The notes beneath the pieces were generated by a model. It worked only from the letters and a program-made list of their open reading frames with translations, searched no databases and was not told where the DNA came from. Source: a virus. Taken from it: DNA of 64,000 nt. Every line of letters begins with the position of its first letter. Positions within the stretch are counted from its first letter, which is position 1. The stretch lies in IMG/VR virus record IMGVR_UViG_3300013723_000002. One strand, 5' to 3'. Both the position numbers and the translations under genes were made by a program. Below are positions 34,683 to 38,299 of the stretch, one piece after another.

Positions 34683-34750
34683 CAATTAAGTTGTACATTT
34701 TTAAGGTATAAGTAATAAATTTTTTTCATAGTTATTAAAAGGGGCTAAGA

Positions 34751-36031
34751 ATGGGACAAGCAAAAAGAAGAGGTAGTTTAGAAAATAGAATTAAAACAGC
34801 TAACTTTGATTGCATTATATGTAGAGAAAATAAAGTATATACAGAACGTAGTGACGAACACGTCATACCAGATGCCTTAAATGGCTACTATCACATTTAT
34901 AATGTATGTACGACTTGTAACAAGGATTTAGGCAATAATGTCGATACCCACTTAATCCATCATAAATTTAGCGAATTTTATCGTTTCATTGAGAAGATTC
35001 CAGGCAAAAGTGGAAAGATCCCTAATCCTTTCAATGGTTATTTTGAAGTAGAAAATGAACCTGGACGACTAATTAAAGCTGATGTAGATAAAAAGGGAGA
35101 ATTATCTTATACCTTTATTCCGCAAAGTCCTGAGATCAAAGAGAAAGACGGGAAAGTACATTTTTCTATTAGCCTAGATGCAAAAGACCGCCATAGATTG
35201 CCAGCAATTCGAAAAAAATTTCTTTCTCGAAATAAACTATCTGAAAATCAAATTATAGAAGATGAATTTGTCGAAAATATAATAGAAAACCCTGTCCTTA
35301 AAGGAAAACTTGAAATAGATTTTTTAAAATTTAAAATTGGTTTACTAAAAATCGCTTATGAGTTTGCGGTTGATAGTATTCCCTCATATTTTGATGATCC
35401 ACAAGCAAAGAAAATATCTAAAATTTTGAAAGATGGAAATATAGAGGCTTTAAAAACCTTAGAGATAGGTAATGGTCTTGATAAAGAAATTTTAAAGCCT
35501 TTAGAGGAAATAGTCGATTTTGAAGCGAAAAGACATATTTTAATTTTGACTTCATCTGACAGTGGGCTTCTATGTATTATCAAATTAGATGGACTATTTA
35601 CCATAGGAGTTAGGCTATCAAAACGCCGTTATATTCAATTTAGGAATACTCTAATTGGCATTAATGATTTAGAAAAGCGGACATTTATCAAAGATAATCT
35701 TTTTAATCTATTTGATAAAAATACTCAAAATGAATATATAAAATTTAAGTTTTCCCTAAATTATTGTGAAATAGATCCAAATAACTTTAACTATGTGAAA
35801 CACGAAAAAGTCTTTTTTAAACTTTTTACAAAAAATGGCCACAGGCACCCTTTAGCAATTAAGAATTTTATTGAGAAAGGTGGATATAAATTACGCTATG
35901 AAAATAATCATATGATTAATAGTTACCTACTGAGTAGTAAAGACTTACCGGCTTTTGTTAAGTCTGAGGATACAGGTATTCTTTATGAAATCACTGGTTT
36001 TGATTTAATAACAGATCATAAAAAAGTATAA
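34751..36031 (+). CDS. HNH (His-Me finger) motif protein with a large uncharacterised C-terminal region (426 aa)
   Basis: CIICRENK...SDEHVIPDALNGYY...CTTCNKDLGNNVD matches the CxxC...EH...N...CxxC HNH signature. Very AT-rich. The rest of the protein is unrecognised. Confidence 0.55.
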   Translation: MGQAKRRGSLENRIKTANFDCIICRENKVYTERSDEHVIPDALNGYYHIYNVCTTCNKDLGNNVDTHLIHHKFSEFYRFIEKIPGKSGKIPNPFNGYFEVENEPGRLIKADVDKKGELSYTFIPQSPEIKEKDGKVHFSISLDAKDRHRLPAIRKKFLSRNKLSENQIIEDEFVENIIENPVLKGKLEIDFLKFKIGLLKIAYEFAVDSIPSYFDDPQAKKISKILKDGNIEALKTLEIGNGLDKEILKPLEEIVDFEAKRHILILTSSDSGLLCIIKLDGLFTIGVRLSKRRYIQFRNTLIGINDLEKRTFIKDNLFNLFDKNTQNEYIKFKFSLNYCEIDPNNFNYVKHEKVFFKLFTKNGHRHPLAIKNFIEKGGYKLRYENNHMINSYLLSSKDLPAFVKSEDTGILYEITGFDLITDHKKV

Positions 36032-36040
36032 ATGAATATA

Positions 36041-36096
36041 AAAAGGGCCAGCATTTCTGCTGTCCCTTTTGGCCATCCAGTAACTACAACCGGATA
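36041..36096. terminator. conserved structured element copy A (bidirectional terminator hairpin plus conserved tail)
   Basis: GGGCCAGCA-TTTC-TGCTGTCCC hairpin, then TTTTGGCCATCCAGTAACTACAACCGGATA. Homologous to 37394-37450 with compensatory stem changes. Confidence 0.55.
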
Positions 36097-36141
36097 TGAC
36101 TATTTATAACAGGAATCGACCATAGTTAGAAGGATCAGATT

Positions 36142-36363
36142 TTATACTTTTCCTTGGTTACACTTATAGCGCCATTCTTTGTAATTCATACGTTTAAGAC
36201 TATTACAGACTAGATAATCAGTGGTATGCATGTATCTGGTATAAGTAGGGCCACTGACAGTCTGTATACGCACTACTGAGGCCGGTTTAGTATTACGGCT
36301 GGTTCTGGTAGCTGTTATAGAGCTGGACGTAGTAGCGGGCTTAAATGAGCTACTACTAAATAT
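36142..36363 (-). pseudogene. start-less 73-codon open frame (probable gene remnant)
   Basis: Minus-strand frame open from the TGA at 36364-36366 to the TAA at 36142-36144 (…SGPTYTRYMHTTDYLVCNSLKRMNYKEWRYKCNQGKV*). There is no ATG with an SD near its 5' end. Confidence 0.3.
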
Positions 36364-36517
36364 TCAAAAGCATCTTATCGGTTAAAACTTCAAAATACTC
36401 TTTCTATATTCTAAGATAGAATAATTAAAAATATGATTTTTTATTATTTTTAATAAAAATAAACACTTAGACTTAAAATAAATTGAAAAAAGAAAATATA
36501 ATATAGAGGACTATAAT

Positions 36518-37369
36518 ATGGATACAGCTTTTACTAAAGAAGACCTTAGTTTTATTACAGAAATTATGGATCAAAAATATAGTCAGCCACGATTATTAAT
36601 GGCTGTCGGAGATGAACCAGATCCAGCAATTAATCCTAGCGATAAAGTTAATGGGGATATGAGTATTCCGAAACCGTTAGAAGTTAATGTTAATGGAACA
36701 ATGTCTGTAGATGATTACAACAAATGTGCAATGATCATATCTGTTTGTCAAAATATGGTGCAAAAAACTCTTACTGATGCTGCAAAAGTTGCAGGTGTAG
36801 AAACAAGTGAGGCGTTAAAAAATATGGATGCTTGGGTAAAAGCATATGTTGATTTTCCTTTTCCCTTTTTTAACTTTAAAGATACACAAAGTGATACGTA
36901 TAAAAAGAGCGACTTTTCTTTAAAAGCTGATCCGGAGGTGGTTGAAAAAATTGTTAATATTAAAGGTGTTGATGGGTTAAAAGATGCAGTTATTGGTGCC
37001 TTGCAGAAATCTGGGGGTGAATTAGTTAAATATGAAAAGACTGAACGTCATTTTAAATATTTTGGGGTAATTTCTGCATTTAATGAAACTGAGATTAGTA
37101 CACGCGTTATAAAATTTGATATGAATCTCAAAAATACTGTTACTAAAGCTTTATGTGTTACACACCAATCGACAGATCTTGATACAGCTTATGATACTTA
37201 TCAATTTGTTGCAGATAAAAACTTAATGATTACTATGCAATCGAAAATGGGCGATAAGATGGCTGATTACATGGCCGATAAACTTTTAGAATTTGTTAAG
37301 ACTTTCTATGATGCCCAATTAACAAATTATCAAGCTGAGCTTGCAGCTCTTATAAAGAAAAAAAGCTAA
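36518..37369 (+). CDS. hypothetical protein (283 aa), no family recognised
   Basis: AGAGGA-type SD upstream, an extremely AT-rich promoter region, and element copy B downstream. Confidence 0.55.
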   Translation: MDTAFTKEDLSFITEIMDQKYSQPRLLMAVGDEPDPAINPSDKVNGDMSIPKPLEVNVNGTMSVDDYNKCAMIISVCQNMVQKTLTDAAKVAGVETSEALKNMDAWVKAYVDFPFPFFNFKDTQSDTYKKSDFSLKADPEVVEKIVNIKGVDGLKDAVIGALQKSGGELVKYEKTERHFKYFGVISAFNETEISTRVIKFDMNLKNTVTKALCVTHQSTDLDTAYDTYQFVADKNLMITMQSKMGDKMADYMADKLLEFVKTFYDAQLTNYQAELAALIKKKS

Positions 37370-37393
37370 ATATTTATTTTATTAACTATAAAT

Positions 37394-37450
37394 AAAGGGG
37401 TTAGTATTTCTACTGACCCCTTTGACCTATCCAATAAATACAACCGGATA
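37394..37450. terminator. conserved structured element copy B
   Basis: GGGGTTAGTA-TTTC-TACTGACCCC hairpin, then TTTGACCTATCCAATAAATACAACCGGATA. Confidence 0.55.
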
Positions 37451-37498
37451 AAAAAATTAAAACTTAAAGTAACTGTAAAAAAGTACTTCTTAATCAAT

Positions 37499-38188
37499 TT
37501 AATTTCCTTGTATTTCTATAATTTCTTTATATTCAATAATCTTAAACTTTTTATATATATCATTTTTTATTAATAACACTTTATCACCATTCATTTCTAG
37601 CATATACCAACCTTCTTCTTTAGATTTTAGAACAACCGGATTTAATTTATTATCTTTACTTCCTACCAATATAGATGCATTTGTTGCTGTAAGAGCAGTA
37701 AATATAAATAGACTAACAAGTACAAAAACGAAAGAATATATTTCCAATTTTTTTTTAAAATTTAAGTTATATGAAAATTTTTTAGAACTATTATATATAT
37801 CTATACCACTTGTAAAAATTAATATATTAAATATAAAAAATGTTATATAAATATTCAAAAAAGTTTTAAAAATAAATATTATTAATATATATATAAACAT
37901 ACCTAAAAAAGGAACAAAATTTATAAGTATTTCAGATTTTGTACTATTAATATATATACTAACTAAAATTCCTAATATCATTACAAAAAGCAAGGGTAAG
38001 GTTGATGTAAATATATACTGTGGAGTTAAAGAATAAATATACCAAGGAATGCCTAACTCATTATAATAAATATATTTATAAAAAGATGATATTCCAATAG
38101 AAAATATAAATGCTAATGAAAAAAGCTCTAGTATTTCAGAAAATTTTAATTTTATTTTTTGATCTAAAAGATCCATAGAGTTACCCAT
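37499..38188 (-). CDS. multipass membrane protein with a soluble C-terminal domain (229 aa)
   Basis: At least five hydrophobic segments rich in I/F/L. Extreme AT content. Convergent with 36518..37369. Confidence 0.55.
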   Translation of the reverse strand: MGNSMDLLDQKIKLKFSEILELFSLAFIFSIGISSFYKYIYYNELGIPWYIYSLTPQYIFTSTLPLLFVMILGILVSIYINSTKSEILINFVPFLGMFIYILIIFIFKTFLNIYITFFIFNILIFTSGIDIYNSSKKFSYNLNFKKKLEIYSFVFVLVSLFIFTALTATNASILVGSKDNKLNPVVLKSKEEGWYMLEMNGDKVLLIKNDIYKKFKIIEYKEIIEIQGN

Positions 38189-38299
38189 ATTAGCTTTAAA
38201 AGCTGATTAAATATAAGCATTATCTAATCAGCTTTCATCAGTTTTATCTATAGAATATGAATATCTAAATCTTAAATATTCATGCTTTCAGTATTTTAA

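Follow-up and report, generated by a model that had tools for sequence, protein, structure and literature searches.

An AT-rich cargo island between the early operon and the late region of an Acinetobacter phage

The 64,000-nucleotide (nt) stretch of virus record IMGVR_UViG_3300013723_000002 analysed here (the window, to whose positions all coordinates refer) comes from a temperate phage of Acinetobacter radioresistens. Between the gene that closes its early operon and a motif of its late region it carries an AT-rich island of three genes, which we call g1, g2 and g3. The original prediction, made by eye from the sequence, took these genes for a candidate novel defence or exclusion module at a moron or defence hotspot. 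We find that the island is one allele of a cargo slot and was horizontally acquired, because a near-identical phage holds different cargo between the same junctions. The explanation that we prefer, and consider reasonably probable, is that the slot is a cargo (moron) hotspot of a temperate, plasmid-like phage and that its three accessory genes were acquired separately and are transcribed separately, g1 being a restriction-like nuclease, g2 a membrane-perturbing protein and g3 an exclusion-type membrane protein.

Genes, borders and cargo of the slot

The island, its genes and its two anchors are as follows; L041 is an IMG/VR contig of 71 kb that represents the same phage as the window at 98% identity, and aa denotes amino acids.

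34689..38298, no strand: cargo island of 3,610 bp; L041 holds a different, 2,012-bp cargo
34751..36031, plus strand: g1, a solitary predicted HNH_5 nuclease (Pfam HNH_5 at residues 21-72) with a conserved C-terminal region of ~350 aa
36518..37369, plus strand: g2, a soluble 283-aa protein with a predicted Cyt-toxin/Evf-like fold (AlphaFold2 (AF2) model, predicted local distance difference test (pLDDT) 85.9, predicted template modelling score (pTM) 0.84)
37499..38188, minus strand: g3, about five transmembrane helices and a C-terminal soluble domain of ~55 aa (phrog_18775, E 3e-92, function unknown)
38300..38758, minus strand: Holliday-junction resolvase, last gene of the early operon and right anchor (phrog_1770, E 8.6e-26; 95% identical in L041)
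34656..34684, minus strand: copy of the late-region motif (TTAAAAACG..TTTTTTTATTGTTCGCA), left anchor, a direct repeat (D4) with 34014-34042

The three open reading frames (ORFs), of 426, 283 and 229 aa, lie exactly where they had been placed. The drop in base composition judged by eye is borne out by measurement: guanine-plus-cytosine (GC) content in 1-kb bins across 35-38 kb is 0.296, 0.327 and 0.239 (0.24-0.33), against 0.43-0.46 in both flanks. Gene by gene it is 0.30 for g1, 0.33 for g2 and 0.20 for g3, the whole window standing at 0.41 and the backbone at ~0.44. The island also breaks a uniformly minus-strand genome, as had been proposed: when ORFs of 120 aa or more between 379 and 50346 are considered, every plus-strand ORF other than g1 and g2 overlaps a longer gene on the minus strand. 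No matches were obtained when the three proteins were searched against NCBIfam, when the region from 34 to 39 kb was searched against Rfam, or when GenBank phages were searched with the island DNA and, by tblastn, with its proteins.

The borders come from L041. Homology to it is restricted to window positions 28702-34688 and 38299-46748, and it stops at 34688/34689 on one side and 38298/38299 on the other. The limits first proposed, 34683-38290, were thus right to within 6-9 bp, the true ones being 34689 and 38298; a hairpin at 38197-38237 that had been assigned to the backbone as the terminator of the early operon falls inside the island. In L041 the slot contains 2,012 bp of other DNA (L041 coordinates 8462-10473, GC 0.39) with three minus-strand ORFs of 84, 175 and 256 aa, oriented on the phage's own strand; the 84-aa product is a membrane protein, and all three match only PHROGs without known function. 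Both anchors are kept, the left motif being conserved in L041 up to 34688. The slot starts directly after the stop codon of the resolvase gene, the last early gene, and ends directly before the late motif and an Rz-like gene. With anchor genes kept and cargo differing between close relatives, the proposal of an accessory island at a moron hotspot holds.

The locus therefore adds a further case to the known class of prophage diversity hotspots, as described for anti-phage genes in P2 and P4 prophages (Rousset et al. 2022, PMC9122126) and for the orf30, Z/fun and TO acquisition regions of P2 (PMC3091744). Like those hotspots, it is a slot of 2-4 kb between two conserved phage genes, whose cargo differs from one near-identical phage to another and deviates in base composition, and whose genes bring their own signals and often lie antisense; homologues of g1 moreover occupy the orf30 slot of P2-like prophages. 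Unlike them, it belongs to another phage family, is set between a resolvase gene and a late promoter, is represented by two alleles and holds no cargo that matches a validated defence system.

g1, g3 and the question of a single system

Nuclease and membrane-protein pairings exist among defence systems, and the combination seen here had been likened to abortive-infection and superinfection-exclusion systems. That g1, g2 and g3 together constitute one new system of this kind, in which a nuclease works with membrane effectors, would fit their adjacency in one AT-rich insert and their joint presence in the phage copies shown; we nevertheless regard it as very improbable. When the three were compared by tblastn with 36 homologue loci there were no cross-matches between genes, and the ~20 loci with a g1 homologue and ~25 with a g2 homologue all lack the other two. 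Clustering of flanking ORFs gave no conserved neighbour for g2 and, for g1, none beyond shared prophage backbones; the annotated neighbourhoods of g1 and g2 homologues all differ. Apart from copies of the same phage, then, the three genes are never found together elsewhere: every one of the 24 contigs read in which an identical g1 is present belongs to that phage, and the four places shown hold all three genes, one of them (L004) with g3 cut off by the contig end. A three-gene system is unsupported because the genes never meet in independent lineages.

The genes also differ in GC content, and their families are very unequal in size, with 519 homologues for g1, 114 for g2 and 3 for g3, so that the label "orphan" given to all three suits g3 and not g1 or g2. 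A gap of 486 bp separates g1 from g2, each of these two ends in its own hairpin with an A-run and a T-run, and g3 is convergent. The hairpins belong to a repeated element, D3, which has just two copies in the window, one directly behind the stop codon of g1 and one directly behind that of g2.

36041..36096, plus strand: D3 copy a, terminator-like hairpin and tail ..ATCCAGTAACTACAACCGGATA (A-run, GGGCCAGCA/TGCTGTCCC stem, T-run)
37393..37450, plus strand: D3 copy b, hairpin and tail, directly 3' of the g2 stop codon (fold -22.7 kcal/mol, z -5.5)

Copy a folds at -19.2 kcal/mol (z -3.2 on the plus strand and -4.4 on the minus strand). The stems of the two copies differ by compensatory substitutions, and a tail ATCCA.TAA.TACAACCGGATA follows each hairpin. 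Separate GC content and separate hairpins support the view that the island is made of three independently acquired genes, as does the exact fit of g1 between the left backbone junction and a hairpin that adjoins this junction in L041; an anti-phage or exclusion role for individual genes is plausible.

Of the three, g3 has the fewest relatives: 3 matches in 5.8e9 proteins, Acinetobacter only, with 39% identity to an A. baumannii protein, and no relatives in IMG/VR. It had been described as a multipass membrane protein with a soluble tail, which the predicted topology bears out. The PHROG family to which it belongs consists of prophage proteins. Its architecture and prophage location suggest a possible role of the superinfection-exclusion type.

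The nuclease signature seen by eye in g1 (CxxC, DEHVIP, CxxCN) is genuine. At residues 21-72 Pfam HNH_5 (PF14279) scores 49.3 bits (cut-off 27.5; E 4.5e-13), and it is matched by all 44 aligned members of the family. C21, C24, E36, H37, C53, C56, N57 and D65 are invariant in these 44 sequences and D35 is nearly so, giving a His-Me finger with its catalytic histidine, asparagine, acidic residue and two CxxC zinc pairs. Because catalytic and zinc residues are kept in all 44 relatives, g1 would be expected to be an active nuclease. The C-terminal region has strongly conserved motifs of its own (GLLKIAYEF, H262, and GIND with N305). An AF2 model (pLDDT 86) gave no significant match to the PDB in Foldseek, and among the 44 family members PADLOC returned isolated, chance-level matches only.

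The family of g1 has members, 412-435 aa long, in Acinetobacter, Achromobacter, Burkholderia, Vibrio, Aeromonas, Pseudomonas, Halomonas and others. They are always solitary, typically with a long spacer upstream, and their contexts vary: one adjoins an integrase, another adjoins insertion sequence (IS) elements and an Mrr_cat gene, a third lies near a HEPN gene, and at locus L005 the homologue is convergent with an AAA_15 ATPase and near TniQ, the ATPase not being conserved elsewhere. Plasmid homologues stand directly after type II toxin-antitoxin modules, and tblastn against PLSDB likewise returned solitary HNH genes. Six P2-like prophages carry the homologue in antisense orientation, flanked by the tail-completion gene and the baseplate V/W/J/I genes; because of this position its site is the P2 orf30 locus, which is documented to receive genes by horizontal transfer (PMC3091744). 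Integron cassettes are another common place for HNH_5 domains (PMC7370490). A shorter relative of 314 aa was seen on 56, mostly conjugative, plasmids of E. coli; on pETEC_80 (NC_009786.1 8505-9449, L075), the one plasmid examined, it sits between a RelE/HTH (helix-turn-helix) toxin-antitoxin pair and parM.

To judge from sequence and context, the profile of the g1 family is that of a mobile, single-gene accessory nuclease, for which our best guess is a restriction-like role against phages or plasmids. In its HNH_5 core, its mobile carriage and the lack of a methyltransferase gene nearby, it resembles HNH enzymes of the Septu PtuB and McrA type, and the presence of homologues near defence-type genes (Mrr_cat, HEPN, AAA_15) in some genomes recalls HNH defence enzymes in general. 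It differs from the Septu and McrA type in having neither an operon ATPase nor a PADLOC match, and in joining an N-terminal nuclease to a large domain without known relative. With type IV (modification-dependent) restriction enzymes in mind, a methyltransferase gene was looked for in the island and around the homologues and none was found; in the C-terminal region no domain that reads modified bases was identified. Septu itself, which combines the PtuA ATPase with the HNH protein PtuB, was considered and rejected for g1: the island has no ATPase, the AAA_15 gene of L005 is convergent and unconserved, and PADLOC gave no match.

HNH nucleases are common as phage homing endonucleases, and the main rival for the role of g1 is a selfish, free-standing enzyme of this sort, inserted beside the late promoter without benefit to the host and with g2 and g3 as unrelated passengers. 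The hairpin part of D3 copy a is also found at the left cargo junction of L041 (89% over 36 nt); it abuts that junction, and g1 therefore looks like a 1.35-kb insertion running from the backbone to a pre-existing bidirectional terminator. An insert bounded so exactly, present here and absent from the 98%-identical L041, would be in keeping with homing, as would the recurrence of one site, between tail-completion and baseplate genes, in the six P2-like prophages. Against this, most g1 homologues lie in chromosomes, plasmids and islands at unrelated sites. Here g1 is antisense to the phage operons, AT-rich and moron-like with its own expression signals; its 350-aa C-terminal region matches no Pfam family, the small DNA-binding modules usual in homing enzymes were not detected, and the whole cargo of L041 differs, beyond g1. 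We accordingly think homing improbable and retain the accessory nuclease as the reading of g1.

A predicted Cyt/Evf-type fold in the second gene

When the AF2 model of g2 was compared with the PDB by Foldseek, ranks 1 to 13 were all Evf, Cyt1Aa, Cyt2Ba or volvatoxin A2, each with a probability of 1.00 and E values from 5e-6 to 4e-3, which places the predicted structure in the Cyt/Evf/volvatoxin fold. The best match was Evf (2w3y; E 4.8e-6, 243 aligned columns, 12-13% identity, template modelling (TM) score ~0.42-0.45). Dickeya CytC followed at rank 18 with a probability of 0.69, and comparison with viral structures gave weak giant-virus matches only. No member of a set of 43 from the g2 family matched Pfam Bac_thur_toxin at E up to 1; PDB sequence searches with single proteins and with profiles gave chance matches only. 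On the strength of the model, then, g2 carries the Cyt/Evf fold and stands outside the Cyt sequence family. Membership of the gasdermins was considered and rejected, one of the 43 members matching Pfam Gasdermin (E 0.067) and no gasdermin appearing among the fold matches.

The family is rare and widely scattered. Its 114 homologues, at 46-73% identity, come from Planctomycetota, Acidobacteriota, Binatia, Cyanobacteria, Burkholderiales, Sphingomonadales, Bacteroidales, Veillonellales and Ralstonia megaplasmids, the last being the only hits of tblastn against PLSDB. With each of 185,579 species represented by a single genome, a scan returned 21 loci, and a HMMER scan of 1.84 billion protein representatives found 38 family matches. 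Identity between the Acinetobacter phage protein and those of Planctomycetota, Acidobacteriota and gut Bacteroidales is 50-68%, and with gut Firmicutes 41-44% (Lachnospiraceae copies from the genome scan, 41-42%). Three annotated homologues (P0186, P0200 and P0206; 51-55% identical) were also seen in Volvox africanus, and the presence of two of them on one 3-Mb contig suggests transfer between bacteria and a eukaryote. W106, P114, F133, A161, Y181 and C213 are invariant even when subfamilies down to 18-22% identity are included, and the motif FPFPFF is fixed. None of the 43 members matched a Pfam or PADLOC family, PADLOC giving isolated, chance-level matches only, and we found no mention of the family in the literature.

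Some relatives carry additional parts. P0228 is fused to ChW repeats (Pfam PF07538), P0239 to a fascin-like beta-trefoil (E 1.4e-11 to fascin), and P0227 and P0240 have an N-terminal Sec signal peptide, read by eye; such architectures are, by analogy, those to be expected of secreted toxins that bind a target. Cyt toxins themselves include the lectin-domain fusion Cyt1Ca. The g2 protein of the window has neither a signal peptide nor a transmembrane segment. It thus shares with Cyt1Aa, Cyt2Ba and volvatoxin A2 a predicted single-domain alpha/beta fold (Foldseek probability 1.00) and, in some relatives, a beta-trefoil or signal peptide comparable to the fusion found among Cyt toxins, and departs from these toxins in its lack of detectable sequence similarity, its extra C-terminal helices, the missing signal peptide, its far greater conservation and its place on a phage of a Gram-negative host. 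Evf is similar in size (the 2w3y chains have 261-267 residues). It is encoded in the chromosome of a pathogen of plants and insects, where it is a virulence factor; g2 is carried by a phage. Evf is S-palmitoylated on the buried Cys209 (PMC5780409), and by analogy the invariant Cys213 of g2, its candidate counterpart, may be a lipid-attachment site.

How far the fold implies toxicity is the point at which a second alternative has to be weighed: g2 could be an enzyme or lipid carrier that shares the Cyt/Evf sandwich, such as a lipid-binding factor that acylates itself and acts on the envelope of the host, and the island would then be lysogenic-conversion cargo unrelated to defence. A non-lytic, ligand-binding role of this kind is a serious alternative because the conservation is extreme, extending across phyla and to Volvox, and the FPFPFF motif and the invariant cysteine, tryptophan and tyrosine resemble an active site or ligand pocket. 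Evf, too, has no demonstrated pore activity, its mode of action being unknown (PMC5780409). Twelve of the 13 best structural matches are, on the other side, bona fide cytolysins, and the fusions with signal peptides, ChW repeats and a beta-trefoil look like toxin architectures. Overall we consider the non-toxin alternative unlikely, if less so than homing is for g1, and continue to favour a membrane-perturbing g2.

Downstream of many g2 homologues, at a distance of 0-60 bp, an ORF of 144-215 aa was seen to run in the same direction; these ORFs belong to at least four different families.

L020 8910-9344; L029 8901-9350; L025 8901-9392; L027 8849-9325: ORFs downstream of g2 homologues
L033 8884-9360; L064 7902-8378; L036 8840-9487; L037 1847-2407: ORFs downstream of g2 homologues

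Two of these ORFs have His...Cys or N-terminal Cys motifs, by eye, reminiscent of cysteine peptidases; matched against PDB sequences the ORFs gave no hits, and the putative protease partners were not confirmed. At a further locus (L013), genes for a Peptidase_C14 and a ThsB_TIR protein are found 1.2 kb downstream of the g2 homologue. The g2 of the window has no such partner ORF downstream, and the island contains no protease gene. A bolder possibility, to which we give little credence, is that g2 represents a new cross-kingdom family of Cyt/Evf-fold, possibly self-acylating membrane-attack proteins, which on the phage would act as a one-gene killing effector (abortive infection or a toxin released at lysis) and elsewhere perhaps as a protoxin beside cysteine-protease-like genes, a logic resembling that of gasdermins with a different fold.

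Proposed role, surroundings and significance

The mechanism that we infer for the locus would run as follows. The slot between the resolvase stop codon and the late-promoter motif would take up accessory genes. Among these, g1 would be a His-Me (HNH_5) nuclease that works alone and attacks phage or plasmid DNA entering the cell, with the C-terminal ~350 aa of g1 serving in substrate recognition or regulation. The g2 protein would attach to lipid membranes and disturb them; given its lack of a signal peptide and its location on a phage, either lysis would set it free to act on other cells or it would kill the infected host from inside. Finally, g3 would be an inner-membrane protein of the kind used in superinfection exclusion by prophages.

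Several points weigh against this account. PADLOC-DB v2 hidden Markov models gave no match to g1, g2 or g3 at E up to 1, in keeping with the earlier statement that none of the proteins could be assigned to a named defence system. Two hotspot alleles were found; metagenome scans for further alleles gave none from this phage lineage, and distant phages that have only the resolvase in common are not collinear with the window. HNH_5 is the only Pfam family matched in the g1 family, its C-terminal region being without a Pfam or PDB relative, and a recognition function for these ~350 aa is a guess. For g2, the TM-scores of the fold matches are modest at 0.37-0.57 (0.40-0.57 relative to the target), and the link to Cyt and Evf is one of fold only because the sequence profiles of the family (A1 and A4) do not reach the PDB entries of those proteins. 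Conservation across phyla at the level found for g2 is unusual for a generic membrane toxin and may reflect another activity, and its homologues are as frequent in ordinary chromosomal surroundings as in defence-like ones. A lineage-specific functional interaction of g1, g2 and g3 is possible, as they are seen together in the copies of this one phage.

The remaining features of the island and its flanks are listed here.

38197..38283, minus strand: two AT-rich hairpins (38255-38283 and 38197-38237) between the resolvase stop and the g3 start; fold -27.8 kcal/mol, z -4.4
36097..36517, plus strand: non-coding spacer and promoter region of g2, with no ORF of at least 50 aa and no Rfam match
34094..34642, minus strand: Rz-like protein (N-terminal transmembrane helix, then coiled coil), first gene left of the island; weak match to phrog_5777
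34147-34383: lipoprotein ORF embedded in the Rz-like gene, with a lipobox LTGC read by eye

The two hairpins beside the resolvase gene are absent from L041 and are therefore part of the island. The spacer has a weak structure signal (z -2.06, marginally more stable than shuffles) and promoter-like sites upstream of g2 at 36382-36410, 36450-36479 and 36473-36502; its first ~280 nt (36097-36380) appear GC-richer by eye and have no DNA relatives. A conserved non-coding RNA upstream of g2 was considered and rejected, the leaders of homologues (500-800 bp) sharing no DNA similarity and the leader in the window folding only marginally better than shuffled sequences. The tail motif of D3 does not occur in IMG/VR, and by eye it is a poor fit to an integron attC site.

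To the left of the island, the Rz-like gene and its embedded lipoprotein ORF may form a spanin pair. The late motif noted beside the island is real and non-random: TTTTTATTGTTC, with at most one mismatch, has 10 copies in the window against 1.4 expected. Its sites include 16051, 17290, 34028 and 34670, and most lie between minus-strand late genes by eye; the plus-strand copy nearest the island on the late-gene side is at 34670-34681. We take the motif to be probably a late promoter or regulator site.

The backbone from 50564 to 59214 encodes a CI-like repressor, an Erf-like protein, Rep, ParA, a serine recombinase and a Phd/YoeB-like toxin-antitoxin block. The repressor, Rep, ParA and recombinase agree with the earlier description of the element as temperate. 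The ParA, recombinase and Phd/YoeB-like genes are 45-69% similar, as translated, to an A. oleivorans plasmid. The phage also appears as stand-alone contigs of ~75 kb in A. radioresistens assemblies, and the element is probably a phage-plasmid. PLSDB has no match to the island DNA or to the right-hand backbone flank, and among GenBank phages there is no close relative of the phage in the window. Two more AT-rich dips, at 56001-57000 (GC 0.27) and 60001-61000 (GC 0.295), and a transposase-like ORF at 61063-61815 were noted in the plasmid-maintenance region; all of these may be additional acquired cargo.

What appeared to be a three-gene defence system thus becomes a cargo slot with defined anchors in a little-known lineage of Acinetobacter phage-plasmids, and such slots are a practical route to new accessory functions. 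The interest lies not in a multi-gene system; it lies in g2, and to a lesser extent in g1, as uncharacterised families. The g1 family recurs on prophages, plasmids and islands of many Proteobacteria and includes ~350 residues without known relative. The g2 family is extremely rare, yet highly conserved, and is absent from Pfam and PADLOC. If g2 is membrane-active or S-acylated, the Cyt/Evf superfamily would extend well beyond insecticidal and fungal toxins.

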